A stretch of 37,654 nt of DNA from the NCBI GenBank assembly GCA_001775995.1, contig MEZH01000013.1, positions 1 through 37,654 of the forward strand, given 5' to 3'. Below the pieces are notes generated by a model. The model did not search any database, was not told the origin of the DNA, and saw only the letters and a program-made list of their open reading frames with translations. The translations under genes and the position numbers were made by a program. The DNA comes from Candidatus Bathyarchaeota archaeon RBG_16_48_13 (GTDB lineage Archaea; Thermoproteota; Bathyarchaeia; RBG-16-48-13). Below, piece after piece: positions 15,234-33,255 of the stretch (the stretch's first letter is position 1; each line of letters opens with the position of its first letter).

Positions 15234-16319
15234 TTACTTTCGCTGAGTCATTCCTTCCATGCCGGCTAGCTGGTTTGGCCTAGACAATTTGGTGCGCTTT
15301 ATCTCCTCTATTAGTGCTGGCACAATATCTCGATAATCACCTACGACACCATAGTCGGCGTACTTGAAAATGGGAGCCTCAGAATCCGTGTTGATGGCCA
15401 TGACGCTTTTTGCTTCCCTGATTCCGAAGACATGTTGAGCTGAACCGCTAATTCCAACCGCAATGTACAGTATTGGTTTCACCGTTTTTCCTGTTTGTCC
15501 TATTTGGCGGTCTGCCGGCAGCCAGCCAGCGTCTACTGCTTTTCGTGACCCTGCCACAACCCCCCCAAGTTGGGAGGCAAGCTCCTCCAAAAGTCCAATG
15601 CCCTCTGGGCCTCCGATCCCCTTACCAGCGCTTACAATGCAGTCTGCTTTCTCCAGAAGCACTCTACCTAGTCCCAGACTTTGACTATTGACCAAACGGC
15701 CTCTGGGTTTTGGAACGTCAACCTCGGCCCTGATTATTTTTCCCATTTTCCCCTCATCGCGCTTGGGAAGAGGAAAGACGTTTGGTCGAGCGGTGGCTAT
15801 TTGGGGTCTCCTAAAGGGTGTTCTGATGGACGCTAACATGATAGCTCCAAACGGAGGCCTTATCTGAAGGACGTCTCTGCTTTCGGAATCCACGTCAAAT
15901 CCGGTGCAGTCAGCAGTTATCCCCACCCTCAAGATGTTCGCAATGCACGGCGCCATCTCTCGGCATCTCATGGTTCCAGCTATCAGTATGAGTTCAGGCT
16001 TGAAGCGCTTGGCGAGTTGGGCCATCACTGACGCATATATTTCTGGAAAGTAGGTGCCCAACGATGGTTCATCCACAAGTATTGAACGATCAGCACCATG
16101 GTAGAACATTTCCCTAGCGACTTTAGAAATTTTGGACCCTAAGATCACTCCCGTCACATCAACATCGAGCTTAGTCGCTAATTCCTTCGCTGGTGTGAGC
16201 ATCTGTAGGGACGCCTCAGAAATTCGTCCCCCGTGGATGTCGCCTAATACCCATATTCCCCGGTAATCTTTCTTTTCGACGTCCTCCCACTCAGGGCAAG
16301 ACGATTCCTTTTCAGACAT
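15234..16319 (-). CDS. fixB: Electron transfer flavoprotein alpha subunit (FixB/EtfA)
   Basis: GITADCT, QIRPPFG, SAGKG, GSRKAVDAGW and QIGQTGKTVKP..YIAVGISGSAQH motifs; start (ATG 16319 or GTG 16322) overlaps fixA stop. Confidence 0.93.
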   Translation of the reverse strand: MSEKESSCPEWEDVEKKDYRGIWVLGDIHGGRISEASLQMLTPAKELATKLDVDVTGVILGSKISKVAREMFYHGADRSILVDEPSLGTYFPEIYASVMAQLAKRFKPELILIAGTMRCREMAPCIANILRVGITADCTGFDVDSESRDVLQIRPPFGAIMLASIRTPFRRPQIATARPNVFPLPKRDEGKMGKIIRAEVDVPKPRGRLVNSQSLGLGRVLLEKADCIVSAGKGIGGPEGIGLLEELASQLGGVVAGSRKAVDAGWLPADRQIGQTGKTVKPILYIAVGISGSAQHVFGIREAKSVMAINTDSEAPIFKYADYGVVGDYRDIVPALIEEIKRTKLSRPNQLAGMEGMTQRK

Positions 16320-17161
16320 CACCTATGGGCCCCTCCGATAAGGTTGATGTCTTCATCCGCGTACTTCTGCATCAGCCACTTTGCTGCCTTTCCGGCATCA
16401 GGGTCCATGAAGACCTCGCGTTTGCGCTTGACCTCAGGAGTGTAATCGATCTTGGAAACCCATGTGGGTGATCCCTTCAGCCCTACACAGTTTGGGTTGA
16501 GCTTCAAGATTTCGTTGGTAACAATCTCAATAGGCTTCTCTGCTTTAGCTCTGATTTTGTAGATCAGTCTCACAGGCCTCGGTTCCCTGCTCTTCATCGC
16601 CACTCCTAGAACAGCTGGCAGAGGGAGATCGTAAATGGTCTTCTCATCCTCAAGCCACCTTTCGACAGCTATGAATCCGTTTTCTTTGATCTCGACGCTT
16701 CTCACGTAATAGAGGTATGGGAGGTCTAGCCATGAAGCAGTCTGCGCGGCTATGTGCGCGGTGGAGCTGTCAATCGTCTCCTGGCCGAAGATCACAAGAT
16801 CTAACTTGCCGCGCTGATTGGAGATCCTCTTTACGGCGTGAGCAAGGACGTAGCTCGTTGCCAGTGTATCAGCACCACCGTATATTCTGTCAGACACTAG
16901 AATTGCGCTATCTACCCCCATACCCAAGACCTGCTCCAGTCCCTCAATCGCTGAAGGAGGAGCCATGCTTAACGCATTCACTTCACCGCCATATCGATCC
17001 CTCAGATCTAGGGCAAACTCCACGGCGTCTAGGTCGTGAGGATTAACGATGCTGGGGACGCCCTCCCTTATCAATGCCCCCGTCTTGGGGTCAAATCTGA
17101 CATTCGAAGTATTGGGAACCCACTTGATGCCCACGAGGATCTGCAAACCCAACCTCTTCAT
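16319..17161 (-). CDS. fixA: Electron transfer flavoprotein beta subunit (FixA/EtfB)
   Basis: KWVP, LIREGVPSIVNPHD, GADTLATSYVL and FGQETIDSSTAH motifs; ATG 17161. Confidence 0.93.
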   Translation of the reverse strand: MKRLGLQILVGIKWVPNTSNVRFDPKTGALIREGVPSIVNPHDLDAVEFALDLRDRYGGEVNALSMAPPSAIEGLEQVLGMGVDSAILVSDRIYGGADTLATSYVLAHAVKRISNQRGKLDLVIFGQETIDSSTAHIAAQTASWLDLPYLYYVRSVEIKENGFIAVERWLEDEKTIYDLPLPAVLGVAMKSREPRPVRLIYKIRAKAEKPIEIVTNEILKLNPNCVGLKGSPTWVSKIDYTPEVKRKREVFMDPDAGKAAKWLMQKYADEDINLIGGAHR

Positions 17162-17172
17162 ATGCCCCTTTC

Positions 17173-17475
17173 TCAAGTGAATCTGTATTGAATACCCTTA
17201 CCGCTTCTTGGATAGTTCCAGCTGATTGCATTTTGTGGGCAGACAATCCTGCATGTCCCGCACTCCAGACAACCTGAATAGCTGAACAGGACTTTTCCAC
17301 CTAGTAGATCGTAGCATTTGGCTGGACAGAGATCTATGCAAGGTTTGGTTTCGCAACCGATGCAACGATCAAAATTCACCGATATGTGCGGTGTCTCCTC
17401 CACGTCATAAAGGTCGACCTTCAGAATGTCGTCCACGTTGACGGGCTTTTTCGTGAGGTCATCCTTTTGGGTCAT
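17173..17475 (-). CDS. fixX: FixX-type 2[4Fe-4S] ferredoxin
   Basis: CIGCETKPCIDLCPAKCY and GCLECGTCRIVC...WNYPRSGKGIQYRF; ATG 17475 overlaps fixC TGA. Confidence 0.92.
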   Translation of the reverse strand: MTQKDDLTKKPVNVDDILKVDLYDVEETPHISVNFDRCIGCETKPCIDLCPAKCYDLLGGKVLFSYSGCLECGTCRIVCPQNAISWNYPRSGKGIQYRFT

Positions 17476-18785
17476 AATGTTCTCCCGATCTTGTACATGT
17501 CTTTGATCGCCGTCCAAGCGTCTGGGCCTACATCCTTCTGGGCGCCTCTGAGCGCTTTCCAAATGGTTGGACTTTCGAGTCCGATGTTGAATATTCTCCC
17601 CAAACCACTGTTAACCAGCCTTGGATATTGATCAAAGAAGTGAGGGTTGCGTCTGATGTATTCCAGTCCATTGTGTTTCCTTAACTCTCTGCCGATGAAT
17701 GATTCTTCCACCCGCCGACCGTATGCTGAGAGCATTTCGGACGTGAAGTCACCTTCTGCATGTGCCTTTGTGAAGGTTTCAGCCGCAAGGTAGCCCGAGT
17801 AGGCCGCCAAGTCCACACCCCGAATGGTCATGCCATTATTGAGAAGGACCCCAGCAGCATCGCCGACTACCAACAGCCCAGCGCCGCTCAATCTTCTGGG
17901 CATGAATCCACGCCAATATTCGGGTACCAGTTTTGCAGAGTATTCCAGCAGTTCCCCATCCCTCCACAGATGCTTGAGTTTAGGGTGAAGTCTAAAGTCC
18001 TCAAGAAGTCTGGAAATATGCCCGTTAGTTCTCTTGACGGCGTGAGAAAGAAACAGAACAAGACCAATGCTGACGCTGTCCCTGTTGGTGTAGACGAATG
18101 CACCTCCAGGTATATATCTGGTAACGCTACCAAGAAGAATCCATGCCATGCCCTCATCTTCCAGGCCAAACCTCTGGTTGACTCGCTCCGCGTCGAGCTT
18201 GATCGTCTCCTTCAATCCTATCGCGAGATCCTCTTGGCGTGGGACGTTCATTTGCCAAGCGCCTTCAAGAAGAAGCCTGTTAACGCCCTCGGCGTCGATG
18301 ACAGTGTCGGCGTAAACGGTGTCAGGTCCGGCCTGAACGCCTATCACCTTTTCTTTTTCGACTACCAGCCTGTCCACCCTCACCTCAGTCGCCACCAAAG
18401 CGCCGGCTTCTTCCGCTTTAGCCCTCATCCAGTTGACAAGTTCAGGCAGATACGTCGTGAAACTCTTGGATTCTCCGCCCCTGTATTCGATCGAGGTGAG
18501 TCCTTCATCAGAGACGAAGCTGAGTCTTTCAGCCTTTACCCATCGATGCACGGGGGCATCCTTCCTCAGCGATGGAAAGATTGCCTCCAGCGGTTCTGAA
18601 TAAACGCGGCCACCATACATGTTCTTGGTGCCAGCTCTTCGGCCCCGATCTATCATCAGCACCTTGAAACCCTTGCGAGCCAAGGTGAATGACGCCGAGG
18701 ATCCGGCAGGCCCAGCCCCAACGACGATTGCGTCGAACCTGTTGGTTGAAGGACTCGCGTTGGGGGTTGAGTGTTCGGTTGACAT
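17472..18785 (-). CDS. fixC: FixC/EtfC FAD-dependent ETF:quinone oxidoreductase
   Basis: GAGPAG Rossmann motif, GTKNMYGGRVY, EYSAKLVPE, VVGDAAG...RGVDLA; context with fixX, fixA and fixB. Confidence 0.9.
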   Translation of the reverse strand: MSTEHSTPNASPSTNRFDAIVVGAGPAGSSASFTLARKGFKVLMIDRGRRAGTKNMYGGRVYSEPLEAIFPSLRKDAPVHRWVKAERLSFVSDEGLTSIEYRGGESKSFTTYLPELVNWMRAKAEEAGALVATEVRVDRLVVEKEKVIGVQAGPDTVYADTVIDAEGVNRLLLEGAWQMNVPRQEDLAIGLKETIKLDAERVNQRFGLEDEGMAWILLGSVTRYIPGGAFVYTNRDSVSIGLVLFLSHAVKRTNGHISRLLEDFRLHPKLKHLWRDGELLEYSAKLVPEYWRGFMPRRLSGAGLLVVGDAAGVLLNNGMTIRGVDLAAYSGYLAAETFTKAHAEGDFTSEMLSAYGRRVEESFIGRELRKHNGLEYIRRNPHFFDQYPRLVNSGLGRIFNIGLESPTIWKALRGAQKDVGPDAWTAIKDMYKIGRTL

Positions 18786-18818
18786 TACACGGTTACCTGG
18801 GAAAAAAAGGGGGAGAAG

Positions 18819-19421
18819 TTATGTGGCTGGAGCTGGTGGTTTGAGATGTCCAAATGTGGTATTTGCCCCTAAGTATAGCCAAGCCGCGGCATAGGCTATG
18901 GCGCCAATCGAGAAGAGCAACCTGAGCCATTTATTGTCACTGTGGGTAGCGGGAACCGAGAGAAACGTTGCTGCGGCCACCGACAAGTAGGCCAGAGCAC
19001 TCTTCAATGGGTCTGAGGTCATTCCATAGGCAAGAATTGAATATGCATCGACAACTAGGTAGGCGCCCAGCACGGCAGCGGAGTAAGAGACTGCTTTCAA
19101 CCCTCTATTCCAGAACAGCGCTGCTGAAAATCCCATGAGATTCAGGCCACCAAGGGCAGCGACCCCGCCAAAGAGTATGTTGGGACCTCCGCCTGGCGAA
19201 GTAAAGATCCAATTGAAGAGAATATGTGTGCCACTAAGGAAAAGAAATAGTCCGTTCAATCCAATAGCTATCGCTAGCCCCCTGCTCATGTTGTGTCCAG
19301 ATTCTTCGATGGCGTCGGTGGACGCCCTGTAAGGCAGTTTCCACAGGGCTATCCCTGACAGAATTCCGCTCGCTGCGATGCTGTACATCATAGTGTCAAG
19401 TAGGTCAAAAGGTGGTGCCAA
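18819..19421 (-). CDS. DUF981-like polytopic membrane protein
   Basis: About six TM helices; FDLLDTM, W..SPGGGPNILFG and GMTSDPLKS motifs resembling DUF981/COG3374; GGAGG RBS before TTG. Confidence 0.65.
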   Translation of the reverse strand: MAPPFDLLDTMMYSIAASGILSGIALWKLPYRASTDAIEESGHNMSRGLAIAIGLNGLFLFLSGTHILFNWIFTSPGGGPNILFGGVAALGGLNLMGFSAALFWNRGLKAVSYSAAVLGAYLVVDAYSILAYGMTSDPLKSALAYLSVAAATFLSVPATHSDNKWLRLLFSIGAIAYAAAWLYLGANTTFGHLKPPAPAT

Positions 19422-19509
19422 ATTTTTTATCCTCCAAGTATTCCGCTTACTTAATTGAAGCCACTATATATGTATTTTCAATAAATTGTCGCGGATAAAC
19501 GAAAATGAT

Positions 19510-19524
19510 TTTACACATTGTAAA
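19510..19524. promoter_or_regulatory. AT-rich palindrome upstream of DUF981-fixCXAB
   Basis: TTTACA-CAT-TGTAAA; TATATA at about 19465-19470 lies between it and the TTG at 19421. Confidence 0.3.
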
Positions 19525-19653
19525 TGAGAATGCCTTAAGATCACGAACCCACTGGGGAAATCGTCCATCCATTTGTGGGCAGCGGACCGTATTGAATCAT
19601 GTCATGCGAATTCTTCAAGAGCTTCCAAGCTCAAATTGACGAGTAGTCACTGA

Positions 19654-21090
19654 CTAAAGGATAAGCAATGACGCCAACACTGGGGCTAGTCCTAGGCCCA
19701 GGGCTACAGTTAGCACAGTGGTCAAAACAACAGCTATCACTGCGGGATCTCGGGGGTTCTCCCTCACCTCGTTGCGGTCATCTGTTCCTCGAGTTGATAG
19801 GACGTATCGTATTATCTGCGCGTAGTAACCGACAGACACACCGGTATTGATTACTGCGATCAGGGCAAGCCAGGGGGCTATCTCTATGACTGAAAAGAAG
19901 AGGTACATGAATTTGCTCCAGAAGCCTATTAGAGGGGGCATGCCAATGAGGCTGAACACCAATATGACGATGCAGGATGATAAGATCGGCATTTTTCTCC
20001 ATAAGCCAGCAATGCCATCTAGATCCGTCCCCAGACCTTTCTCGGCCAAATAGGATAAGGCGACAAAAATGCCTGTTGTAGCCAGGGCGTATGTTGCCAG
20101 ATGTAGGGCAATTCCCTGAGCCCCGATGGTCGCGCTGACTCCGCTGCCGCCAGCTGCGAAACCGACCAACATGTATCCTACATGCGCAAGGCTGCTGTAT
20201 CCCATCATTTTTTGAAAGTTTCTCTGAATCAAAGCCGCTACGTTGCCGAATGTCATCGTCACGATTGCGAATGCAGCGAATAGGAAAAGCCAACTGACGC
20301 CCAATTTCGGAGCGAAGGGATAGACTATCCGCAGAAGTGCGGCGATGCCTGACACCTTCACTATGCCCGCAATATAGGAAACCAAGATTGGATTTACGCC
20401 TCCGTATACATCAGGTAGCCAACCGTGGAAAGGGACAATTCCGACTTTGAAGCCGAAAGCTGCAACGATCATTATGATGGCTGTCAATATCGCTTGCATG
20501 TTGGCGGGGGAGGCGGCTTGCACTATCGTGCGTATGTCGGTGGAACCGGTCACGCCGTATAGGATTGCAATCCCAAAAAGCAGGAAGGCAGAGGCGACAA
20601 TGCCCATCAAGGCGTATTTGGCAGCACCTTCGAGAGAAGCCTCATCTTTCTTTATTCCAACGAATGCGTAGGAAGCCACGGAAACCAACGCCCAAGCCGC
20701 CAGAAGAAGAACCAAATCGTTAACTGCTATTATATAGTAAACCCCTACTGTGATAATAAGGATCAGAGAGAAATAGCTGGGAGCGGTCGTCCATTTTGAG
20801 GTATGGGTGAAAGAGGCAAGCGTTACAAAAAGGGCTCCAAGACTGGTAATAGTGAATAGAAAGGCGCCGTAGGCGTCTATCTTCAAGGCCCCATCGTAGA
20901 CGTACGTCGGGGGGTTGCCCAATGTCAGAGACAGCAATCCAATTGAAAGAGCCAGAGCGAGAAGAATCGCGGCTAGACACAACCAACGGCTTATTCTCTT
21001 CTTCAGATAGTATTCAATCGTCGGCGTGGCTAGTCCGATACCTCCGAGCAACAACCCAAGTATATCCAATAGGATTTCAACGGTCAACAA
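19654..21090 (-). CDS. nuoN: Complex I-like antiporter subunit N
   Basis: EGAAKYALMG, FKVGIVPFHGWLPDVYGG, YSSLAHVGY and GMPPLIGFWSKF motifs. Confidence 0.9.
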   Translation of the reverse strand: MLTVEILLDILGLLLGGIGLATPTIEYYLKKRISRWLCLAAILLALALSIGLLSLTLGNPPTYVYDGALKIDAYGAFLFTITSLGALFVTLASFTHTSKWTTAPSYFSLILIITVGVYYIIAVNDLVLLLAAWALVSVASYAFVGIKKDEASLEGAAKYALMGIVASAFLLFGIAILYGVTGSTDIRTIVQAASPANMQAILTAIIMIVAAFGFKVGIVPFHGWLPDVYGGVNPILVSYIAGIVKVSGIAALLRIVYPFAPKLGVSWLFLFAAFAIVTMTFGNVAALIQRNFQKMMGYSSLAHVGYMLVGFAAGGSGVSATIGAQGIALHLATYALATTGIFVALSYLAEKGLGTDLDGIAGLWRKMPILSSCIVILVFSLIGMPPLIGFWSKFMYLFFSVIEIAPWLALIAVINTGVSVGYYAQIIRYVLSTRGTDDRNEVRENPRDPAVIAVVLTTVLTVALGLGLAPVLASLLIL

Positions 21091-21096
21091 GTCTTC

Positions 21097-23313
21097 CTAA
21101 ATCACCCCCAACAAGAGCAACAGAAGGAGTGCGTTGAACCCTAGCAAGAGGAGCAGAAGGTAGTCGTTGACCCTGCCTGTCTGAATCCTTCTGAAAGCGT
21201 TTGAAAGAAGGAGCGACGCCTTGGCGACCACAAGGTTATAGCCTTTATCTATGACTGCGGTTTCAAAGGCCTTGAATATGGAATCAGAAGCAAGCACGAA
21301 CGCTCTTGGCATCGCGCGATGATAGCCTCTGTCTATTACGCCTGTTTCAAAATATTTGGAGCCCACCGAAGAAGCCTTGGCTGCAAACCAGGGTATGATT
21401 CTATGATAAACGCGATCCACAACCCCTACATCCACGTATTTGAAAAGTCCATTCGCCAAATTGCTGGCTCCTTGGACAAAGATCTTGTAGTAGATCGAAT
21501 TCAAGTACCACCTATTGTACAGAAAACTCTGAATTCCCCTGGAGACCTTGTTCTTAGCCAATCTTTCGCCTATTTTCAAGTTTGATCCTCGTTTTCCATA
21601 TGTCAGGTAGGCCGTGCCCACGCCCACGGAAACCATGGCCAAGGACGTCCCCGTGAGAAGAGGGTCAAGCTCAACGCCAATGCTGAGGGGTTTCTCGGTC
21701 ATCGCCAACGCGTTCTTTATCAGTGCAGAGGAGATATCGCCTCCAACGAAAATCCAGACTACGCCAATCGCAACGGTCACAATTGCTAGCAATGCGTAGG
21801 GGGCGAGCAGCATTGGGTTTGCCTCATGCAATTCATTTTCCCCGGCCATGTGCTTTACTCTTTCAGAGGGCTGTGTCAGGAAGGTCTTCATTATGAGTCT
21901 GATCGAGTAGAAGGCTGTAAGAGCGATGGTTATCACCATCAACATCAACGGGACGAACAAATTGGTCTGATACACTATCTCTAGAAGATGATCCTTCGTC
22001 CAGAAACCCAGTAGAGGAGGTACTCCTGAGAGGCTTAGCGCCGCGATGAGCATGGTTATGAAGGTGACCTTCATGAACTTCGACAGGCCCCCCATATCGT
22101 CCATGTACCTAGATTCCACCGAGTGGATTACGGCTCCAGCCGCGAGAAACAGCGACGCCTTGAAGATTGCGTGGCTCATCAGGTAATTGAAGGCTGCAAT
22201 GAAGCCGCTGCTGAAATCAGCGATTAGCCCCGAAGCGCCACATGCCATGAAGATCAAGCCCAATTGAGAGGCTGTTGAAAACGCCAAGACCAATTTGAGC
22301 TCTTTCGCCACGATTGCCTGCGTCGCCATCAGGAAAGCTGTGAACGCTCCCAAGTAGACGATGACCGTAAAATAGAGTCTCACGTCGGCGGCAGCGCTGG
22401 GCACGATAAGGTTCAGTTCCCTCGATGCAAGATAGATTATGGGCGTGAATCGAAGCATGAAGAAAATGCCTGCTTTCACCATTGTTGCAGCGTGTATTAA
22501 CGCGCTGACGGACGTTGGGCCGGTCATAGCTGTGACGAGCCATTCGTGAAAAGGAAATTGGGCGCTCTTGGCCATGGCGCCTAGCGTAAAAGCGAACATG
22601 AACGGAAGCAGCATCCCTCTTACCGCCAGTTCCTGACCCCACAGTGCAACATTGCTAGCCATCGCGGGAATGCTTAGCGAATTCGTAAGCATGTAGATCA
22701 CCCCAATGCCGGCAATTAATCCGACATCCCCCAATCTCGTGAAGACGAGGGCTCGAACACCACTGTGGCTCGGTGAGAAGTCCATGGGGATACCCAAGAC
22801 CTTTCTGCCTTCGTCCCCCACCCACTTGTCCTTCTGATCGGTGAACCAATGCCCTATGAGGGCGTAGGAGGCTAAGCCTGTGCCTTCCCATCCAATAAAC
22901 ATCAGAAGTAGATTTCCTGCCATGACTATGAGTAGCATGCTTGCGGTGAAGAAACTGAAAAAAAACCAGTACCGAGTGAGGCCCGCGTCACCTTCCATGT
23001 ATTTGAGGCTGTAGAAGCCTATGAGAAAACACAGCCACGTGACGATAAAGGCCATGAATGCGCCCAAGGAATCGACAAATATCTCAACCTGAACCTGAAG
23101 CGATGGCACCCAAGGAACGGAAAAATGAACTACCCCACTTTCAAGGACCGTCTTCAGCAACAGCGTTGAGGAAAACGCGCTGAGGAATAGCATGCCGACA
23201 GCAACATATCCTCGCCATTTATCCAACTTCAAAACTGACAGAAGAAGTACGATGGCCGCTCCAACATAAGGGGCCGCCCATGTTGCGTTGGCTATTATTC
23301 CGTCTAGTATCAA
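21097..23313 (-). CDS. nuoL: Complex I-like antiporter subunit L with elongated lateral helix (738 aa)
   Basis: GWEGTGLASYALIGHWF, AKSAQFPFHEWL, SALIHAATMVKAG, SHAIFKASLFL, GFWTKD and C-terminal QTG motif. Confidence 0.93.
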   Translation of the reverse strand: MILDGIIANATWAAPYVGAAIVLLLSVLKLDKWRGYVAVGMLFLSAFSSTLLLKTVLESGVVHFSVPWVPSLQVQVEIFVDSLGAFMAFIVTWLCFLIGFYSLKYMEGDAGLTRYWFFFSFFTASMLLIVMAGNLLLMFIGWEGTGLASYALIGHWFTDQKDKWVGDEGRKVLGIPMDFSPSHSGVRALVFTRLGDVGLIAGIGVIYMLTNSLSIPAMASNVALWGQELAVRGMLLPFMFAFTLGAMAKSAQFPFHEWLVTAMTGPTSVSALIHAATMVKAGIFFMLRFTPIIYLASRELNLIVPSAAADVRLYFTVIVYLGAFTAFLMATQAIVAKELKLVLAFSTASQLGLIFMACGASGLIADFSSGFIAAFNYLMSHAIFKASLFLAAGAVIHSVESRYMDDMGGLSKFMKVTFITMLIAALSLSGVPPLLGFWTKDHLLEIVYQTNLFVPLMLMVITIALTAFYSIRLIMKTFLTQPSERVKHMAGENELHEANPMLLAPYALLAIVTVAIGVVWIFVGGDISSALIKNALAMTEKPLSIGVELDPLLTGTSLAMVSVGVGTAYLTYGKRGSNLKIGERLAKNKVSRGIQSFLYNRWYLNSIYYKIFVQGASNLANGLFKYVDVGVVDRVYHRIIPWFAAKASSVGSKYFETGVIDRGYHRAMPRAFVLASDSIFKAFETAVIDKGYNLVVAKASLLLSNAFRRIQTGRVNDYLLLLLLGFNALLLLLLLGVI
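21196..21447 (-). repeat. Three tandem 84-nt / 28-aa imperfect repeats in the NuoL lateral helix
   Basis: LFKYVDVGVVDRVYHRIIPWFAAKASSV / GSKYFETGVIDRGYHRAMPRAFVLASDS / IFKAFETAVIDKGYNLVVAKASLLLSNA; on the + strand GTTTCAAA recurs at 21260 and 21344 and TATTT at 21353 and 21437 (84-nt period). Confidence 0.85.
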
Positions 23314-25675: not shown

Positions 25676-26135
25676 ATCTGAGACCTCTTTTCTCGTCAAA
25701 TAGGGGTTTAACCCTCGGCTTATCCTCAATGACTGGATCTTTACTGAAATCTTCTGGTTTCAATACCTGCTCACCAAGAGTGTAGCATGCTGCATCGTGA
25801 GAACCAGACATTTCGAGAGCGTCAACAGGGCAAATATCAACGCAGAACCCGCAGAATATACATCTTTGGTATGTTATTCCGGGATATTTTCTGACATCAA
25901 CTTTGACCATTTTTAATGCGTTTGACGGACAAATGCGGGCGCATAATGTGCAGCTTATGCATATGTCGATGCGAAGCTTTAACATTCCTCTGTAATTCGG
26001 TCCAAGGTCTTGAAGAACCTCAGGGTATAGTACGGTCATTCGAGGTTTGAAGATGTGCTCTATTCCAGACCTGATTGCTTGCATGTGTCCTGTCAGGCCA
26101 AGCAGCTTCCCCGCTCTACGATCTTTGGGTTTCAT
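25662..26135 (-). CDS. nuoI: Complex I-like subunit I (2x[4Fe-4S])
   Basis: TVLYPE, CISCTLCARICP and CIFCGFCVDICP; ATG 26135 lies 2 nt after the nuoH stop. Confidence 0.92.
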   Translation of the reverse strand: MKPKDRRAGKLLGLTGHMQAIRSGIEHIFKPRMTVLYPEVLQDLGPNYRGMLKLRIDICISCTLCARICPSNALKMVKVDVRKYPGITYQRCIFCGFCVDICPVDALEMSGSHDAACYTLGEQVLKPEDFSKDPVIEDKPRVKPLFDEKRGLRYESC

Positions 26136-26137
26136 AA

Positions 26138-27154
26138 CTAGAACCCCAGCACCCACACAATGCCGAGTGAGAGAGCCACAGACGCCACAGACAATACGAA
26201 GAGGGTGTGCCATCCCAGTTTCAGCACTTGGTCTATACGGAATCTTGGGTATATGCTCCTCATGAATACGCATAAGCCCATCACAAGGAGACCTTTGACA
26301 AAAACGGCCACTCCCGGAAGAATTGGATTCAAGGTCAAGGGCCAAATAAGAGGATTCCAGCCCCCCAAAAAGACCTCGGCGAAGAACAAGCTTAGGACGC
26401 TCAGTTTTGCGTACGATGCCCCAAGACAGAGCACGAAAATTATGCCGCTGTACTCGGTGTACGGTCCAATCACTAGTTCGCTCTCGGCCTCGGCAACGTC
26501 GAAGGGAAAACGCGCCGTCGTCATGAGCATCGCAACAAAAAACGTTATGGCCGCCAATGGGTTGAGCGCGATCCCCCAGAGACCAGATGATTGTCTTCCC
26601 ACGACTTGTACCAGATCTAGGGTGTCGTATGCTACGGCCATAGCCAAAATGGAAACAAACATCGGAATCTCATAAGCCATCATTAGGTAACCGTCTCGCA
26701 GGCTTCCGATGAAGGAGAACTTGTTGTTGCTTGACCAGCCCAGGAGAAGCATGAATATTGGAGTTATCGTCAGCAGCGCCAGGACCAGGAGAAGACTCAA
26801 ATCGCTGAAAAAAGCGGCGTAGCTGTTGCTTAGTGGAATGGCTACCACCGGCAACATAGATAGCGTGAACAAGAAAATTGGAGAAAGGATGAATGCTTTT
26901 TTATCAGATCCCTTCGGAATAATGATCTCGGTGAAGAGAAACTTCAGCAGATCCGCTACTAATTGAGGTAGGCCTCCCAATGATTTCAAAACGTATAGGG
27001 GCCCATACCTCAACTGAACTTTAGCTGTGAGCTTTCTCTCGAACCATGCAATGAATATGATGACAAGGAATGTTGTCAGAAGCCCAGGAAAAATAAGGGG
27101 GATGATGATCGTGGGGGACAGTAATATCTGCAGCAACTGCTCAACAACATTCAT
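26138..27154 (-). CDS. nuoH: Complex I-like subunit H
   Basis: ERKLTAKVQLRYGP, QLVADLLKF, RFPFDVAEAESELVIGPYTEYSG and YPRFRIDQ motifs. Confidence 0.94.
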   Translation of the reverse strand: MNVVEQLLQILLSPTIIIPLIFPGLLTTFLVIIFIAWFERKLTAKVQLRYGPLYVLKSLGGLPQLVADLLKFLFTEIIIPKGSDKKAFILSPIFLFTLSMLPVVAIPLSNSYAAFFSDLSLLLVLALLTITPIFMLLLGWSSNNKFSFIGSLRDGYLMMAYEIPMFVSILAMAVAYDTLDLVQVVGRQSSGLWGIALNPLAAITFFVAMLMTTARFPFDVAEAESELVIGPYTEYSGIIFVLCLGASYAKLSVLSLFFAEVFLGGWNPLIWPLTLNPILPGVAVFVKGLLVMGLCVFMRSIYPRFRIDQVLKLGWHTLFVLSVASVALSLGIVWVLGF

Positions 27155-27157
27155 GAT

Positions 27158-28318
27158 TTATCTGTCAGCCTCCGGTGGAAAGTAGTCTAGACTACCGTAA
27201 ACGGCTGGGATATCAGCCAATTTCTGGCCCAGCAGTGCGTGTTTGAAGGCTATCAAGTTCTTGAACGAGGGCGTCACGATCCTGAATCTATAAGGGTGAG
27301 TCGAACCATCGCTCACTAAATAGTGGAAGAGTTCGCCTCGGCTCGCTTCGACGCGTGAAACTGCCTCACCTTTTGAGGGCTTTAGCCCAGAAAACAGAGC
27401 AGGAAATTTCACTGAACTCCTCTTTTCAAACCGTGTTCTTGAAGGTACAAGATCCAAATATCTGTCTGCAAGGATCGAGCCGTCAGGTATTTTGCCCAGG
27501 ATTTGCCTTATCATGCTGATGCTTTGTTCGATTTCGCCTATTCTTACCAGAAGTCGAGCATGGGCGTCGCCTTCATCTCTGACTACTACCTCAAAGTCCA
27601 AGTCAGGGTAGATGCAGTAGGGCTCAATTTTCCTTACATCGTAAGCAATGCCGGAAGCTCTGAGGTTCGGACCGACTACCCCGATTCTAGCCGCATCAAT
27701 CCTATTGATGACTCCAACTCCTTTCAGGCGAGCCAATGTCACTGGATTGTGGACGAAGATGCGGTCATAGTCTTTGAGCCTTCTCTCCATGTAACTGAGG
27801 GCCTTCAGGGCGTCATTCCTGAAGTCTTGAGGCAGGTCTCTTCTGACGCCACCAGGTATGATATATGAATAGCTGAGTCTGGCCCCAGTAAGGCGTTGAG
27901 CTAGCTCTATGAATGGCTCCCTGTCCCCAAATGCCCACATCAGCATGGTGGTGGAGCCGATCATATTCCCGTGAATGCCCATTCCGTAGAGGTGACTATG
28001 AATTCTGTTGATCTCGGCCAACAATATCCTCAAGTATTGTGCACGAAGTGGCGCATCTATTCCGAGCAGTCTTTCTAATGCTAGGACGTAACCTAGATTG
28101 TGATTGGCTGTATCAGGCAACGAAGTCCTTTCCACTAATGGTATGATTTGCACGTAAGTCTTAGTTTCGGCTATCTTCTCTACAGCTCGATGCACGTAGC
28201 CGATATTTGGCTCGAAATTGAGGATAACGTCTCCATCCATCTCGGCGACAAGCCTCATATGCCCAGAGCCGGGGTGTTGAGGCCCAATTAGGAGTTCTAA
28301 GGTTTGCTCTTCACTCAT
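27158..28318 (-). CDS. nuoD: Complex I-like subunit D (no NiFe-binding cysteines)
   Basis: GPQHPGSGH, GYVHRAVEK, EINRIHSHL, EASRGE and RFRIVTPSF; ends DYFPPEADR; neither hydrogenase CxxC motif is present. Confidence 0.93.
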   Translation of the reverse strand: MSEEQTLELLIGPQHPGSGHMRLVAEMDGDVILNFEPNIGYVHRAVEKIAETKTYVQIIPLVERTSLPDTANHNLGYVLALERLLGIDAPLRAQYLRILLAEINRIHSHLYGMGIHGNMIGSTTMLMWAFGDREPFIELAQRLTGARLSYSYIIPGGVRRDLPQDFRNDALKALSYMERRLKDYDRIFVHNPVTLARLKGVGVINRIDAARIGVVGPNLRASGIAYDVRKIEPYCIYPDLDFEVVVRDEGDAHARLLVRIGEIEQSISMIRQILGKIPDGSILADRYLDLVPSRTRFEKRSSVKFPALFSGLKPSKGEAVSRVEASRGELFHYLVSDGSTHPYRFRIVTPSFKNLIAFKHALLGQKLADIPAVYGSLDYFPPEADR

Positions 28319-28791
28319 GCGTCTATTCCTTCGGTCCTTATCGTGTAGCTCTTCCTGAGTGGTGGCTCGCCTTCGAAGTCCTCCGGAAGCAGGAGTCTTG
28401 CCATCGCTTCACGTCCTCCGAAGTTTATTCCCATGAGGTCCGTGGTCTCTCTTTCGAGAAACTCAATACTTGGCCAAACGGCGACCAGCGTGTGGATATT
28501 GGGCTCCTGACGACTGACCGTAGTTCTGATTTCAAGGATGGTCTTCGCCAACTCCAAGTCTTCAAATGACGAAACATGATAGATGACATCTATTCTGTTC
28601 TCTTCTGGGTAATCTGTGGCGGTAACCGATATCACATGATCAAATTTCAAGTTTTTCAGCAGGTGGGCTGTTTCCAATATCTTTGAGGCGTCAACCGTGA
28701 TCGATAACCCATTCTGTTTCGTTAAGAGGACCCTTGTCACAATGCCCTTCAACTTGTCAGAGATCAGGCCAGAAAGTTCTTCAGTTTTCAG
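28315..28791 (-). CDS. nuoC: Complex I-like subunit C (start either CTG 28791 or TTG 28752)
   Basis: SVTATDY, ERETTDLMGINF and LLLPEDFEGEPPLRKSY motifs; frame open to 28800 with AGGTGA RBS upstream of the CTG. Confidence 0.88.
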   Translation of the reverse strand: MKTEELSGLISDKLKGIVTRVLLTKQNGLSITVDASKILETAHLLKNLKFDHVISVTATDYPEENRIDVIYHVSSFEDLELAKTILEIRTTVSRQEPNIHTLVAVWPSIEFLERETTDLMGINFGGREAMARLLLPEDFEGEPPLRKSYTIRTEGIDA

Positions 28792-29269
28792 GGTGAGGTG
28801 TCACCTTTTTTCTAATTTTTTCTTGCTCCATCGTCAATGATTTCAGAATTGCCTCAGGCCTTGGAGGGCATCCAGGTATGTAAACATCAACGGGGAGTAT
28901 TTCATGAGGTCTGACTATGTTGTAGCTGTTCCAGAAAATCCCGCCATCGATGGCACATGCACCCATAGCAAAAACGAACTTGGGCTCAGGCATCTGTTCG
29001 TAAACAATCTTTGCCGCTTCAGCCATTTTCTTGGTTACAGTTCCTTCTATGAAAAGAACATTGCATTGGCGCGTCCCCACGAAGGGCAGGAAGCCGTATC
29101 TTTCGGCATCGTATCTTGGGCAGAAACTTGCCGCAAATTCTGACCCACAGCAAGCCGTAGTGAAGTGCACTGGCCAAAGAGAGAATGATGTCCCCCAATC
29201 TTTGAGGGAACTCAAAATCTTTTGTCGGGCTAACGCCCTCGACAATCTTCTTATGACCGCATCGAACAT
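28781..29269 (-). CDS. nuoB: Complex I-like subunit B (N2 cluster)
   Basis: Tandem Cys TACCGSE, EQMPEPK, GACAIDGG and DVYIPGCPPRPE; ATG 29269 lies 2 nt after the nuoA stop. Confidence 0.94.
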   Translation of the reverse strand: MFDAVIRRLSRALARQKILSSLKDWGTSFSLWPVHFTTACCGSEFAASFCPRYDAERYGFLPFVGTRQCNVLFIEGTVTKKMAEAAKIVYEQMPEPKFVFAMGACAIDGGIFWNSYNIVRPHEILPVDVYIPGCPPRPEAILKSLTMEQEKIRKKVTPHPEN

Positions 29270-29271
29270 GT

Positions 29272-29673
29272 TCAGCGTTCCTTTCTTTCCTTGATTTTCC
29301 ACAGCTCAATCCTATTCGCCGCATCCAAACCAAAAACTAGGGGGGGAGCGAGCATGAGCATGATCAATACGAAGAGTTGGACGACGCTATAGTACATCTC
29401 GTGCGTTTCCATCAAGAGAAGAAACAAATAGAAGAAAATGGGCTCAACGGTGAGAAAAACCACCAAGTAGGCATAGTATTGCATGGTGAACCAACCTCTC
29501 CCTCTTTTGGAGGGGGGGTTACCCGCTTCAAACCTCGCCTCCTTTATGGTCGAGTGTTTTGGAGGGGCAACGAGTCGGCTTATGGCGTAGCTCAGCAAGC
29601 CGGCACCCAAGCCACCGGACAGAGCCAAGAGAAAGGTGACCAAAGCATTATAGTCCAACGCGAGTTGACTCAC
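29272..29673 (-). CDS. nuoA: Complex I-like subunit A
   Basis: Three TM helices; RFEAGNPP and MQYYAYLVVFLTVEP motifs; GTG 29673 with G-rich RBS. Confidence 0.88.
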   Translation of the reverse strand: MSQLALDYNALVTFLLALSGGLGAGLLSYAISRLVAPPKHSTIKEARFEAGNPPSKRGRGWFTMQYYAYLVVFLTVEPIFFYLFLLLMETHEMYYSVVQLFVLIMLMLAPPLVFGLDAANRIELWKIKERKER

Positions 29674-29702
29674 AAATTGCCCCCATAAATATCTCGAATA
29701 GG

Positions 29703-30611
29703 TCAGAGAACTCCCTTGTATACCCGCACCGCCGGGCAACCCATGCATTGACCCTCAATGAATTGGACGCATTCAGCACATTTTCTACCACATGGTGCTA
29801 TATCTTCCTTCGCAGGGAAGACCCTTATATGGAATGCATCAGTCACGAGCGGCGGCTCAGAGCTGTGAACCGAGACGAGTTCTGTATCTTTGATGCCCTT
29901 AAAACTCTCAACGGTCGAGTTCAGGGTGCTCTGATCTTCGCCCCAGAGGAGAGTGAGTATGTTTGCTTTGTCAGTAGGCTTCAAGATCATCAGCACACGC
30001 GGGCAACTGAGCAGCATTTTCTCCAGTTTTTGGCGCGCATCAGAGTTCTTGCTCTCGAACGCTGCCAAAGTTGTCTTCATGCCCAGTTCGCTAAGGTTGA
30101 TCCCTGGCTTCAAGGAAAGGATCTTTCCGCTTACTAGACGATTCAATTTTGCTATTACGGTTGGTCGAGAGGACCCGATTTCCCTTGAAATTTGGAGGAC
30201 GGGCTTCCTGGAATCTCTTCGAAGTGCTTCAATGATCTTGAGGTCGATGGCATCTAGTTTCGTGGCACGACCCGGGACACTTGCATGAATTGTTCCATGC
30301 AATTTAGCATATTGAAGGGCTTCGTTCAACGAATAATCCGTTCTTTCGAGCTTGAGTCCTACCTTGGAGAAAAGCAAGGCTGCTATTAGATTTTCAATTT
30401 TAGTCGAGCCGACTCCGAAAATCGTTCTCAGTTCGTCGCTGATAGCTCTCTGGTTATTTTCGATTTCGTCACGGCGCAGAAGATTCTTTCCTTCGATGTG
30501 AACCAGGAAACTTTCTGCCGTCTTCTCATCGAGCATGATGTTCAAAGCCTCTCGAATGGAATCCAACACAAGTCCATCGAAGGTTTTGACCAGTTTTGAA
30601 GTGGTCTTCAT
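29703..30611 (-). CDS. Lrp/AsnC-family regulator with DUF3227-like N-terminal domain and five-Cys C-terminal tail
   Basis: LDAIDLKIIEALRRDSRKPVLQISREIGSSRPTV (AsnC HTH); helical N-terminal domain; tail CGRKCAECVQFIEGQCMGCP. Confidence 0.82.
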   Translation of the reverse strand: MKTTSKLVKTFDGLVLDSIREALNIMLDEKTAESFLVHIEGKNLLRRDEIENNQRAISDELRTIFGVGSTKIENLIAALLFSKVGLKLERTDYSLNEALQYAKLHGTIHASVPGRATKLDAIDLKIIEALRRDSRKPVLQISREIGSSRPTVIAKLNRLVSGKILSLKPGINLSELGMKTTLAAFESKNSDARQKLEKMLLSCPRVLMILKPTDKANILTLLWGEDQSTLNSTVESFKGIKDTELVSVHSSEPPLVTDAFHIRVFPAKEDIAPCGRKCAECVQFIEGQCMGCPAVRVYKGVL

Positions 30612-31096
30612 TTCGAATCCCTTGAGATTCTCTTGAGGGCGCTGATTCTTTTCTTGTATTCTTCAGCCGAGATCAGGTCCATTTGGGTAACGGTCCCGTC
30701 GGACTCGTAGACTGATGGATAGACGTAGATCTTCATGTCGGGGCTCTTCCGATAGAGTGCTGCGCCGATGGCTAGGGCAATCGGACACGGTAGATCGATT
30801 CCTTTTATCTTGGAATGCACTCCGTGTTCTCCGCCAGCGAAGAGACACTTTCTGATTATGAAACTGTACTTGTTGCCATTCTTTTTGAGCTCTAGCCCCT
30901 TGTAGAGACCTGTTCTCTCAAGCTCAATCAGCAAATCCCTCACATCTTTTTGACCGAAATGCTCGAAATAGCTTTCAACTGTGTTATTGATGCCCTTGAT
31001 GGCCATCTCGTGAACATCGAAGAAGTTTCTCTCCTTCTTCAACGCTTGAAAAGTTCCGAAATAGACGCCGTGCAGAGCGCACGCCAAGGTACGCAT
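30608..31096 (-). CDS. V4R/MetOD1-like small ligand-binding protein
   Basis: KCLFA...HGVH...PCPIAL pattern; TGA overlaps the regulator ATG (ATGA); ATG 31096 preferred. Confidence 0.55.
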   Translation of the reverse strand: MRTLACALHGVYFGTFQALKKERNFFDVHEMAIKGINNTVESYFEHFGQKDVRDLLIELERTGLYKGLELKKNGNKYSFIIRKCLFAGGEHGVHSKIKGIDLPCPIALAIGAALYRKSPDMKIYVYPSVYESDGTVTQMDLISAEEYKKRISALKRISRDSK

Positions 31097-31318
31097 ATTC
31101 TCTAATTCTTCCTTTCCGGTCGTGCTGTCCTGTCCCCCAAGGGAATATGCGCATCGAGGACCCTTATTAGCATTTTGTAAAGGGAAAGGGATGAAAGGAC
31201 ATTGTGGCGCGGTCCAAAGCGTCTCCACCCTTCCATGCTGACGAGTGAATGCATGCGAACCCATGCAAAGTGTAAACCACCTATCGATAAGTTTAATTAT
31301 TGAAGGAATTCATCTTAC

Positions 31319-32311
31319 TTGGGCGACGAAATGTTAGAGAAGCCTGCAAATGCGTTGCCAACGGCGGATATTTTGGGGCTACGAAGCCTAGTCAACCGCC
31401 ACATGAAAGGTCTCCTATCTTCCATCGGACACCTGAGTCTTAGTCCTCAACTTGATTATTGTCTCCTCTCACCTGGAAAGAGACTCAGACCCTTAATAGT
31501 CCTCCTTTCGACCTATGCCGTTGGAGGCGATTTGGAAAAATCTCTACCGCTTGCGCTTTCCATCGAGGCGCTGCACACGGCCACGTTGGTCCATGATGAC
31601 GCCATAGATCGTGATCAAGATCGGAGAGGCGTTCCCACGGTTCACACTAGGTGGGGTGTTGGCGATGCCATACTTGTTGGTGATTCTCTGATCTCTCTTT
31701 CCATAAGTTTGGCCGCGGACTACGGCCGAGAGATAGTGAAAATCATCGCTAACACAGGTTTGGAACTCTCCGATGGAGAACATGCCGAGGCATCATCACA
31801 GTTGAAAATATCCACTGAAAATCAATACTACGCAAGAATCCGAGGTAAATCTGCAGCCCTTTTCAGGGCCGCGGCCAGAGTCGGGGCGTTGGCGGGGGGC
31901 GGTAACGGGCGTGAAGTCGACGCCTTGGGAGAATTCGGCGAGAGATTCGGCTTAGCCTATCAGATCAGGGACGACATTCAAGACCTGATGGAGAAGGGAA
32001 GTGAGATGCCCCGAGACCTGCGGAATAAAGTCCCCACGTTGCCGATCCTTCATTTGTATCGTAATGGAGACGCCGGGGTCAGGAGGCTTCTGGACAGGGG
32101 CTTCACTGAGGGCTTTTCGATTGCAGAAGCTCGCCAAATAGTGGTCGAACTCGAATCGAGTGGTTCGATTCTCTATTGCGAGCAAAAAATCGAGGAAAAT
32201 CTCGGAGCGGCCCTGAGAGCGTTGGCCGAGATCAGGTTCGCCAAGGCAAAGAATCTCCTAACTGAGTTGTTTGAGGTCGCTATTCCACATGTGGGGATGC
32301 AACCGCCATGA
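31319..32311 (+). CDS. Trans-polyprenyl diphosphate synthase, probably long-chain
   Basis: GKRLRP, FARM HTATLVHDDAIDRDQDRRG, GKSA and SARM YQIRDDIQD; start TTG 31319 or ATG 31331. Confidence 0.92.
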   Translation: MGDEMLEKPANALPTADILGLRSLVNRHMKGLLSSIGHLSLSPQLDYCLLSPGKRLRPLIVLLSTYAVGGDLEKSLPLALSIEALHTATLVHDDAIDRDQDRRGVPTVHTRWGVGDAILVGDSLISLSISLAADYGREIVKIIANTGLELSDGEHAEASSQLKISTENQYYARIRGKSAALFRAAARVGALAGGGNGREVDALGEFGERFGLAYQIRDDIQDLMEKGSEMPRDLRNKVPTLPILHLYRNGDAGVRRLLDRGFTEGFSIAEARQIVVELESSGSILYCEQKIEENLGAALRALAEIRFAKAKNLLTELFEVAIPHVGMQPP

Positions 32312-33255
32312 AGCCGATTCACGGATTTGCGCCGTCCAGTCTGAAGGTCAAGATCCCCTTGTTGCTGGCTGAGTTGCGGGCACCATTTCTAACCGCAAGC
32401 CTGGCTTCCGTGTTCTTAGGAACGGCGATGGCTTGGGTGTCCTGGAAGAATATTGATCCAATATTCTTGCTGCTGACCCTGGCCGGAACGTTTTGTCTTC
32501 ACTCGAGTGCGAATGTGATCAACGATTATTTCGACTACAAGAGTGGCTGTGACGGGCTCAACAGAGATTCTATTCCCCCATTTACCGGAGGAAGTGGCCT
32601 CCTTGTCAGCGGCGCCCTGCGCCCGAATGAGGTGCTTGCGCTCGCTTCGAGCCTATTCCTGACAGCAGGGGCAATTGGCCTTTACCTCGCAATGATCAGA
32701 GGGTGGATCATCCTAGTCCTAGTCGCCGTCGCCGTTCTTTCCGGATATTTCTACACGACTCACCTCGCAACCAGAGGTGTTGGAGAGCTCGTCGTAGGTC
32801 TTTGCTTCGGTCCGCTTCTTGCATTCGGAACATATTATGTCCAGACCAACTCCTTCGCGCTGGGACCTCTGTTAGCGGGTTTGCCGCTGGGCCTACTTGT
32901 GGCAGCCATACTTTGGATAAACGAAATACCTGATTACAGAGCTGACAGCCTAGTAGGGAAGAACACGGCCGTCGTCAGGCTCGGGAAAAGAAGAGCTGCT
33001 CAAGTTTACGTATGCATTGTCGGCCTCGCGTACGCGATCATCGGGTTCGGCATCCTAGCCCGTGTCCTCCCGGTAACATCAGCTCTAACCTTCTTGTCAC
33101 TCCCCTTGGCACTCAAAGCCGCGAGAATAGCGAACACTAGTTATGATTCGAAGGAGTTGAGACCCGCAAATGGACTCACCATTTCGACGCACCTCGTCGT
33201 TGGAATCCTCTTGACAACTGGATACATCCTGCTGCCTCTTCTCCCTGCCATCTAG
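32308..33255 (+). CDS. menA: 1,4-dihydroxy-2-naphthoate polyprenyltransferase (MenA, UbiA superfamily)
   Basis: LRAPFLTAS, NVINDYFDYKSGCD, FTGGSG, GELVVGLCFG and INEIPDYRADSLVGKNTAVVRLG motifs; overlaps upstream gene. Confidence 0.85.
   Translation: MKPIHGFAPSSLKVKIPLLLAELRAPFLTASLASVFLGTAMAWVSWKNIDPIFLLLTLAGTFCLHSSANVINDYFDYKSGCDGLNRDSIPPFTGGSGLLVSGALRPNEVLALASSLFLTAGAIGLYLAMIRGWIILVLVAVAVLSGYFYTTHLATRGVGELVVGLCFGPLLAFGTYYVQTNSFALGPLLAGLPLGLLVAAILWINEIPDYRADSLVGKNTAVVRLGKRRAAQVYVCIVGLAYAIIGFGILARVLPVTSALTFLSLPLALKAARIANTSYDSKELRPANGLTISTHLVVGILLTTGYILLPLLPAI

Follow-up and report, generated by a model that had tools for sequence, protein, structure and literature searches.

In the Angelarchaeales (PMC9038741) and in Candidatus (Ca.) Aerovita (PMC12533140), NADH has been proposed to be bifurcated to ferredoxin (Fd) and menaquinone, with a truncated complex I oxidising the ferredoxin. 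For Moorella thermoacetica growing on CO, electrons have been proposed to pass from ferredoxin through a headless complex I to menaquinone and on to EtfABCX working in confurcation, which closes a quinone loop (PMC13040438). For Bathyarchaeia, Loh et al. (2021, PMC7886697) described Hfo, an Fpo-like 11-subunit [NiFe] hydrogenase; in the open-access literature searched, this was the only membrane energy converter found described for the group, and no paper was found on its quinones. The DNA analysed here (the window) is the entire 37,654-nt contig C13 (MEZH01000013.1) of the Ca. Bathyarchaeota archaeon RBG_16_48_13 bin (G000; 848 kb, 16 contigs, rated 75% complete), which carries, side by side, genes for a headless complex-I-like enzyme (Nuo), for EtfABCX and for a prenylated carrier. 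Bathyarchaeia are among the most abundant archaea of anoxic sediments, their energy conservation is poorly understood, and they are regarded as fermenters or acetogens without Rnf.

We suggest that the three co-located modules constitute one membrane electron-transfer system working as a closed loop, a reading for which we see the chances as evenly balanced. The modules would most likely share a ferredoxin pool and a prenylated lipophilic carrier (Q): Nuo would pass electrons from reduced ferredoxin to Q with coupled ion translocation, or the reverse, and EtfABCX would reversibly link two NADH with ferredoxin and Q. Within the loop, Nuo would reduce Q with ferredoxin and pump ions, and EtfABCX, in the confurcating direction, would then reoxidise QH2 together with more ferredoxin and form NADH, the net outcome being a reversible, ion-translocating, Rnf-like Fd:NAD+ oxidoreductase. 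With the loop reversed, an ATP-driven ion gradient and NADH would provide reduced ferredoxin for CO2 fixation, a service that Loh et al. assigned to Hfo with H2 (PMC7886697). The ferredoxin donor, the prenyl-quinone acceptor, the direction, the loop and the pump stoichiometry are what we infer. A closed loop is favoured because no quinol-oxidising terminal enzyme and no Rnf were found: G000 yielded no cytochrome bd, haem-copper oxidase (COX1), NrfD-type anchor, SdhA/FrdA flavoprotein or cytochrome b, and RnfD/E were found neither in G000 nor in 22 genomes of the same order. An initial annotation of this DNA had spoken of respiration, which does not agree with the lack of a detectable quinol-oxidising terminal enzyme in the bin. 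Genes for 2-oxoacid:ferredoxin oxidoreductases are present in G000.

The core idea, EtfABCX combined with a headless complex I, is already published and is not new in kind; the Angelarchaeales, Ca. Aerovita and Moorella models follow the same logic with a truncated complex I, FixABCX/EtfABCX and ferredoxin. In those models, however, the modules are not reported as neighbours, as they are here, and the organisms have known menaquinone pathways as well as cytochromes or terminal oxidases, whereas neither a known head-group pathway nor a terminal enzyme was found here. The new elements are the Bathyarchaeia setting, the physical clustering with carrier genes, a MenA-like enzyme without a known head-group pathway and a three-repeat lateral helix.

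Genes in the window were called from an open reading frame (ORF) listing together with Pfam and NCBIfam scans, and the gene identities, family memberships, motifs and distributions given below come directly from the analysis. All named genes of 15234-33255 were identified at their coordinates by these scans, and the gene content given by the initial annotation (nuoABCDHIJKMLN and DUF981-fixCXAB, with divergent polyprenyl synthase and menA) proved correct to the base:

nuoA, 29272..29748, minus strand: PF00507; NF004729 at 104 bits (cut-off 94)
nuoB, 28781..29302, minus strand: PF01058; NF005012 at 178 bits (cut-off 116)
nuoC, 28315..28752, minus strand: PF00329, E 4e-31
nuoD, 27158..28318, minus strand: NF004739 at 460 bits (cut-off 360)
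nuoH, 26138..27154, minus strand: PF00146, E 2.5e-85; NF004741 at 342 bits (cut-off 305)
nuoI, 25662..26135, minus strand: two CxxCxxCxxxC motifs
nuoJ, 25178..25729, minus strand: PF00499, E 4e-21
nuoK, 24873..25181, minus strand: PF00420, E 7e-19
nuoM, 23323..24876, minus strand: antiporter-like subunit; TIGR01972 at 268.7 bits (cut-off 263.8)
nuoL, 21097..23313, minus strand: 738 aa; TIGR01974 at 418 bits (cut-off 407)
nuoN, 19654..21090, minus strand: NF004445 at 327 bits
nuoN-DUF981 spacer, 19422..19653, minus strand: 232 bp; AT-rich TATA-like box (ATATATA) some 55 nt ahead of the start of DUF981; GGAGG
DUF981, 18819..19421, minus strand: six-transmembrane (six-TM) membrane protein; PF06168, E 1.8e-22
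fixC/etfC, 17472..18785, minus strand: ETF:quinone oxidoreductase-like flavoprotein; NF007450 at 327 bits
fixX/etfX, 17173..17475, minus strand: ferredoxin-like subunit, start most likely ATG 17475; NF011993 FixX, E 2e-16, and Cys pattern
etfB/fixA, 16319..17176, minus strand: small ETF subunit of the bifurcating type; PF01012
etfA/fixB, 15234..16322, minus strand: large ETF subunit; PF01012 and PF00766
polyprenyl synthase gene, 31319..32311, plus strand: trans-polyprenyl diphosphate synthase; PF00348, E 5e-50
menA-like gene, 32308..33255, plus strand: MenA-like UbiA-family aromatic prenyltransferase; PF01040; TIGR00751 menA

On the minus strand, the gene for a 218-aa protein and that for an AsnC/Lrp-type regulator precede nuoA-B-C-D-H-I-J-K-M-L-N, DUF981 and fixC-fixX-etfB-etfA. 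The nuo genes (29748-19654) overlap or are closely packed, the fix/etf genes (18785-15234) overlap by 4 nt, and a 54-bp spacer separates the 218-aa gene from the divergent polyprenyl synthase and MenA-like genes (31319-33255, plus strand). The start of nuoI is most likely ATG 26135, because the ORF as listed, from 26345, overlaps nuoH and is aligned to family members only beyond residue 70.

All eleven core subunits of the complex-I-like enzyme (A, B, C, D, H, I, J, K, L, M and N) are encoded together, several of them scoring above curated cut-offs, and no NuoE/F/G, FpoF or hydrogenase gene lies within the window. The initial annotation was right in this for the window, and NuoE, NuoF and FpoF were likewise not found in the composite, 75% complete bin of 848 kb (families PF01512, PF01257 and PF04432, representing NuoF/NuoE/FpoF-FrhB), but the genome does have a hydrogenase, an Hfo encoded on contig C4. 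The window enzyme appears headless and is not a hydrogenase, as had been proposed. NuoD contains just one Cys, and a motif check of L1/L2 against the Hfo D subunit showed all four [NiFe] ligands to be missing; NuoB has the tandem Cys51-Cys52 with Cys116 and Cys145, the N2 ligands of complex-I type. NuoI contributes two 4Fe-4S motifs. A hydrogenase identity of Nuo was rejected, since its NuoD is without the [NiFe] cysteines that Hfo D keeps.

The same 11 core subunits occur in the ferredoxin-dependent headless complex I enzymes, namely cyanobacterial NDH-1, the Fpo-like complex of Methanosaeta/Methanothrix and Nuo11 of TACK archaea, which share with the window enzyme the lack of a [NiFe] site, the N2 tandem Cys of NuoB and the lateral helix of NuoL, and whose lack of a NuoEFG/FpoF module the window enzyme appears to share. 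No ferredoxin-docking subunits of the NdhS/O type are present here, and the enzyme differs further in the Leu at the Tyr87-equivalent position of NuoD, in the gene order K-M-L-N and in a lateral helix with three 28-residue repeats instead of one. Ferredoxin is the probable electron donor, because no other input module was found and in view of the literature on NDH-1 and Fpo-like complexes. The initial annotation went further in holding that Fix replaces the N-module. Such a replacement would have to run through soluble ferredoxin. That Fix feeds ferredoxin to the headless complex I is plausible; nothing suggests docking.

The second complex-I-shaped cluster of the genome (C4:67880-78250) has divergent arms: one strand encodes J, K and three antiporter-like subunits, the opposite strand B, C, D, H, I and HycI. 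The [NiFe] ligands are retained in L1 (CGICSIAH) and L2 (DPCFSCTDR) of the D subunit, which identifies the cluster by motif as the Hfo-type [NiFe] hydrogenase of Bathyarchaeia. Hfo (PMC7886697) and the window enzyme have the same subunit set and occur in the same genome, whereas the window NuoD, only 34% identical to the Hfo D subunit, is without the L1/L2 nickel ligands; Hfo also has a HycI protease gene. A further arrangement was seen in another genome, G010 (C23:4044-14810), where the architecture is split as in Hfo, with B-C-D-H-I on one strand and K with antiporter-like genes on the other, the D subunit has no [NiFe] cysteines, and the cluster lies directly beside menA and a gene of the geranylgeranyl reductase (GGR) family. 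It may represent a quinone-reducing derivative of Hfo.

The assignment of the Fix/Etf genes to the bifurcating EtfABCX type, made in the initial annotation, agrees with matches to PDB entry 7KOE for all four subunits. The best PDB match is 7koe_B for EtfA (E 1.6e-79, the top five matches all being from bifurcating systems), 7koe_C for FixC (E 2e-54) and 7koe_D for FixX (E 3e-20); 7koe_A is second best for EtfB (E 2e-44), whose matches at E<=1e-15 are bifurcating ETFs only (CarD, 7koe_A, 5ol2_B, 4kpu_B and LctB). The four subunits are encoded together by overlapping or abutting genes, and their membership in the bifurcating EtfABCX family (group 2, not the AMP-binding group 1) is well supported by these matches. 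A partnership of Fix with acyl-CoA dehydrogenases, which the initial annotation had named as an argument to the contrary, was rejected, since PF00441 was not found in the bin.

The four-subunit architecture is that of EtfABCX from T. maritima (7KOE) and Pyrobaculum aerophilum and of FixABCX from Azotobacter vinelandii, and the order fixC-fixX-etfB-etfA is that of many Thermoproteota. Unlike the known EtfABCX, the genes described here adjoin DUF981 and a nuo operon and reach only about 50% identity to the closest named archaeal homologues, which for FixC come from Caldarchaeales, Nitrososphaerota and Desulfurococcales; identities of 64-71% were found only to metagenome proteins. A contig search with FixC gave as sole match 51 residues in a Bdellovibrionota metagenome-assembled genome, and a metagenome contig search with a FixC alignment returned only relatives of 32-36%, the 64-71% relatives not being among them.

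The third module is defined by the polyprenyl synthase and the MenA-like protein. The latter clears the cut-off of TIGR00751 by about 3 bits (105.5 vs 102.15) and stays far under those of nine other MenA models (best 150.9 vs 277), and for the polyprenyl synthase every NCBIfam equivalog falls under its cut-off, chain length being not assignable. Homologues of the MenA-like protein occur in 82 of 300 Bathyarchaeia species genomes. Neighbours of a quinone-tailoring type are GGR-family genes in G579, G009, G010 and G540 and a B12-radical-SAM gene in G579. DUF981 was assigned to the carrier module and not to Fix because in G417 it is contiguous with polyprenyl synthase and menA in a genome where FixC was not found, and because in G009 it has fixX on one side and GGR on the other. 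The fold predicted for DUF981 is similar to that of six-TM channels of the SatP/UreI type. No further DUF981 copies were found near fixC in the 19 loci from other families of the phylum, a search by tblastn and a two-sequence hidden Markov model that is of low sensitivity for copies down to 24% identical. As a separate observation, among 14 named control genomes DUF981 (PF06168) occurs in exactly the four that have PF02621, namely Thermus, Deinococcus, Thermotoga and Sulfolobus. Unlike these control genomes, Bathyarchaeia have DUF981 without PF02621.

Gene neighbourhoods were compared across the class. Close homologues of nuo (NuoN E<=1e-90) occur in only two of 300 genomes. One of them, G579, has menA, B12-radical-SAM, GGR and polyprenyl synthase followed by nuoA-B-C-D-H-I-J-K-M-L-N in the same order as here, on a contig that ends 250 bp past nuoN; the contig of the other, G637, holds only M-L-N. 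FixC is present in 43 of 290 genomes, 36 of which belong to one family. Within 6 kb of fixC, menA is found in G009 and G524, and G009 combines etfBA-fixCX, DUF981, GGR, polyprenyl synthase and menA. In G540 (C22:3600-26100), a one-strand row of membrane-arm genes comprises polyprenyl synthase, nuoA, H, J, K, M and L, directly followed by a further antiporter-like gene; then come three genes on the plus strand, a nuoN-like gene and GGR. At a distance of 5 kb the opposite strand carries fixC-fixX-etfB-etfA, everything within 20 kb, and no B, C, D or I genes are near the row. G010, as described above, has menA and GGR beside a non-hydrogenase BCDHI cluster. MenA is encoded by 34 of the 43 FixC-positive genomes and by about 48 of 257 FixC-negative ones, counts that come from related genomes and do not form an independent statistic. 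Adjacency of nuo and fix is sporadic, and linkage of each module to prenyl-carrier genes is recurrent. The synteny in relatives, whose lack the initial annotation would have taken as a refutation, is therefore half absent: it exists in part in G540 and G009 and, for the carrier genes, recurs.

A number of observations weigh against the closed loop. Nuo-like genes lie within about 10 kb of fixC at only two of 23 Bathyarchaeia loci, those of G000 and G540, and at none of 19 loci of other Thermoproteota families, and FixC is missing from G579, the genome whose nuo cluster came closest of all species genomes searched. The spacers between nuoN, DUF981 and fixC show promoter-like and terminator-like signals on reading of the sequence: the 232-bp spacer likely contains an internal promoter, and the 33-bp DUF981-fixC spacer contains a T7 tract. 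The promoter-like box, the GGAGG and the T7 tract hint at separate transcripts for nuo and fix, which are co-directional neighbours and at most a putative operon. All this would be expected if the modules were independent and only accidental neighbours, for example on an acquired island, with EtfABCX serving only to provide low-potential ferredoxin for biosynthesis or the Wood-Ljungdahl pathway while shedding electrons to the carrier, and Nuo using another donor. Different histories, with Bathyarchaeia as the top named relatives of NuoN (66%) and other archaea (about 50%) as those of FixC, point in the same direction. Nevertheless, neither module can do without a membrane carrier, and each is found repeatedly beside carrier genes in several families. 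Moreover, the EtfABCX of G000 shares only 37-38% identity with its counterparts in G540 and G009, so different Etf lineages came to lie near nuo or prenyl genes, and we hold an accidental neighbourhood to be quite improbable. The closed loop is also weakened by the state of the bin: absences in G000 are weak evidence, because it is 75% complete and composite. With a quarter of the genome missing, the same module identities would suit a linear respiratory chain, as in the initial annotation, analogous to those proposed for Angelarchaeales and Ca. Aerovita: EtfABCX would oxidise NADH to give reduced ferredoxin and menaquinol, the headless complex I would pass electrons from ferredoxin to menaquinone while pumping extra protons, and a terminal reductase would oxidise the menaquinol in anaerobic respiration. 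The only candidate found that could serve as such a reductase is a dimethyl sulfoxide (DMSO) reductase-family molybdoenzyme at C16:3436-6305 (765 aa, N-terminus partly masked, RRR near the start), whose partner is a four-cluster Fe-S subunit similar to TtrB/ArrB/DmsB. However, no membrane anchor gene (NrfD) was found beside it or elsewhere in the bin, nor were cytochrome bd, haem-copper oxidase, cytochrome b or fumarate reductase, and we consider a linear chain unlikely.

The nature of the carrier bears on all these readings. TACK archaea with menaquinone normally use the futalosine pathway (PMC3914697). Not one class genome out of 301, among them G000, yielded MqnA/D of this pathway (PF02621), and MenB scored above cut-off in none of five MenA-bearing genomes (G000, G009, G032, G548 and G579, three of them 98% complete), so that no known menaquinone head-group pathway was found, which also speaks against the linear chain. 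Menaquinone, named by the initial annotation, is for these reasons and because the MenA-like protein passes a single model by 3 bits a doubtful carrier; the head group could be a scavenged naphthoate, or the carrier a different aromatic compound. A further difficulty for the closed loop lies in NuoD, where the equivalent of Thermus Tyr87, a quinone-binding residue, is Leu (VERTSLPD), as seen in a PDB alignment and in an alignment with 150 representatives; the beta1-beta2 loop HPGSGHMR contains a His and is one residue shorter, so the canonical pair of quinone-site residues (His38 and Tyr87) is incomplete, and the C-terminus reads LDYFPPEADR. These traits are shared by the 6-8 representative clusters that came out nearest when 1.8 billion proteins were scanned, and the G579 orthologue has the same loop and C-terminus. 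Perhaps, then, the Nuo-like complex reduces no quinone and uses another acceptor, such as a sulfur compound as in Pyrococcus MBS, or a soluble or membrane carrier. Leu or Ile stands at the Tyr87 position throughout the NuoD clade, subunit L of MBS (6u8y_L) matches NuoD as well as true complex I does (E 4e-78), and similar substitutions with Tyr87 loss in Sulfolobus NuoD have been read as pre-quinone ancestry (PMC4758237). Tyr87 loss is by this comparison a trait of a TACK-type clade and not a defect of the gene. The membrane arm, on the other hand, is of Nuo type (A, H, J, K, L with lateral helix, M and N) and not of the Mrp type of MBS, NuoB has the N2 tandem Cys of complex I, and in G000, G579 and G010 the cluster is accompanied by genes for a MenA-like protein, polyprenyl synthase or GGR. 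This makes an acceptor other than quinone very improbable in our view. Overall, the interpretation in the initial annotation is partly supported.

The possible ion stoichiometry can be estimated from published standard potentials (NADH -320 mV, ferredoxin about -450 mV, menaquinone -74 mV; PMC10734219). By our own calculation, transfer from ferredoxin to Q yields about -73 kJ and from NADH to Q about -47 kJ per electron pair; owing to the Fd-to-Q span, ferredoxin would allow about five ions per pair at 150 mV, compared with about three for NADH.

The lateral helix of NuoL is of interest in this respect. NuoL was compared by PDB alignment to NdhF, by hydropathy and repeat analysis and by a four-way alignment, and the unusual helix length noted in the initial annotation was borne out: TM15 and TM16 are about 145 residues apart, whereas in the L subunit of this genome's Hfo the distance is about 93. 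The helix contains three tandem 28-residue repeats (residues ~625-708) with the motif [VI][VI]D[RK]xY[HN] at residues 631, 659 and 687, adjacent repeats sharing 12 of 28 identities by our count. With two repeats in the G579 and G637 orthologues and one in canonical NuoL, NdhF and Hfo L, the insertion amounts to two extra units (56 residues) relative to the canonical form, whereas these orthologues have one extra unit. An AlphaFold2 model of NuoL (4-sequence alignment) had a mean pLDDT of 46.6, below 50 from residue 379 to the C-terminus, and is uninformative on helix continuity. A lateral-helix insertion of about 26 residues is a hallmark of 2M and five-pump complex I, and 26-residue insertions also occur in complexes without an extra pump gene, including Manganitrophaceae (PMC9040806). 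Like the 2M enzyme of Nitrospira and the five-pump enzyme of Ca. Manganitrophaceae, the NuoL described here is extended by units of ~26-28 residues, but two extra units are accompanied by only M, L and N in cis. No extra NuoM/MrpD-like gene was found in the operon, and the other antiporter-like genes of the bin belong to Hfo. The extra pumps that the initial annotation derived from the long helix find no gene in the window to provide them, and they would have to be deduced from helix length. In its most specific form, which we regard as somewhat unlikely and propose tentatively, the system would be an Rnf substitute used by some Bathyarchaeia, composed of a headless complex I with a doubly extended helix, EtfABCX and a carrier made without Men/Mqn that cycles between the two enzymes, with no terminal acceptor and with DUF981 in the carrier module; if this is true, the helix would offer room for up to five pump modules.

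Placement of the host in Bathyarchaeia, which the initial annotation had considered, follows from RpoB of the largest contig, whose identity to proteins annotated as Ca. Bathyarchaeota or Bathyarchaeia is 68-73%; the named NuoN relative of highest identity (66%) is also from a Ca. Bathyarchaeia archaeon. The tetranucleotide profile of C13 correlates with that of the main contig at r = 0.917, same-size chunks of the main contig giving 0.815-1.0. Two full-length RpoB genes (C7:213029-216409 and C14:10940-14302) are 90% identical, and the bin therefore mixes two related populations, despite a contamination reported as 0.66%.

Among Bathyarchaeia species, a substantial minority have genes for a MenA-like prenyltransferase (82/300) and for EtfABCX (43/290), a few also have complex-I-like pumps that are not hydrogenases, and these genes tend to cluster. 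If the modules cooperate, they would provide a membrane-bound interconversion of NADH, ferredoxin and ion gradient, and estimates of ATP yield and of the capacity for CO2 fixation would change. That no known pathway for the head group was found hints at a carrier, or a route for making it, that has not been described before, and the three-repeat lateral helix bears on how the number of pumps in complex I changes.

Two genes precede nuoA on the same strand:

218-aa protein gene, 30608..31264, minus strand: first gene of the nuo operon; fold possibly of a small-ligand-binding type like V4R or RdxA_C, as a lead only
AsnC/Lrp-type regulator gene, 29703..30611, minus strand: 302 aa; PF13404 HTH_AsnC-type, E 1.7e-10

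The 218-aa protein has no match in Pfam or NCBIfam; in the Atlas it resembles V4R-domain, RdxA_C and MJ0207 clusters (feature score 0.90-0.92, TM 0.52-0.54). The AsnC/Lrp protein has a 118-residue N-terminal extension and a Cys-rich C-terminus, CGRKCAEC...CMGC (C-x3-C-x2-C ... C-x2-C), and is a possible redox-sensing regulator of nuo. Together they may form a ligand- or redox-sensing regulatory pair, of which no counterpart was found upstream of nuoA in G579.

An Rfam scan of the window gave no match. Elsewhere in the window, there is a gene for a small Rieske-type [2Fe-2S] protein at 323-628 and one for a sensor kinase of 1076 aa with MEDS, several PAS, HisKA and HATPase domains at 834-4064 (plus strand). 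A radical-SAM/SPASM protein (9755-10852, plus strand), distantly AhbD- or NirJ-like and far under cut-offs, is followed by a 381-aa protein without family match (11206-12351, plus strand), these two genes being 3-5 kb away from the cluster at its etf end.

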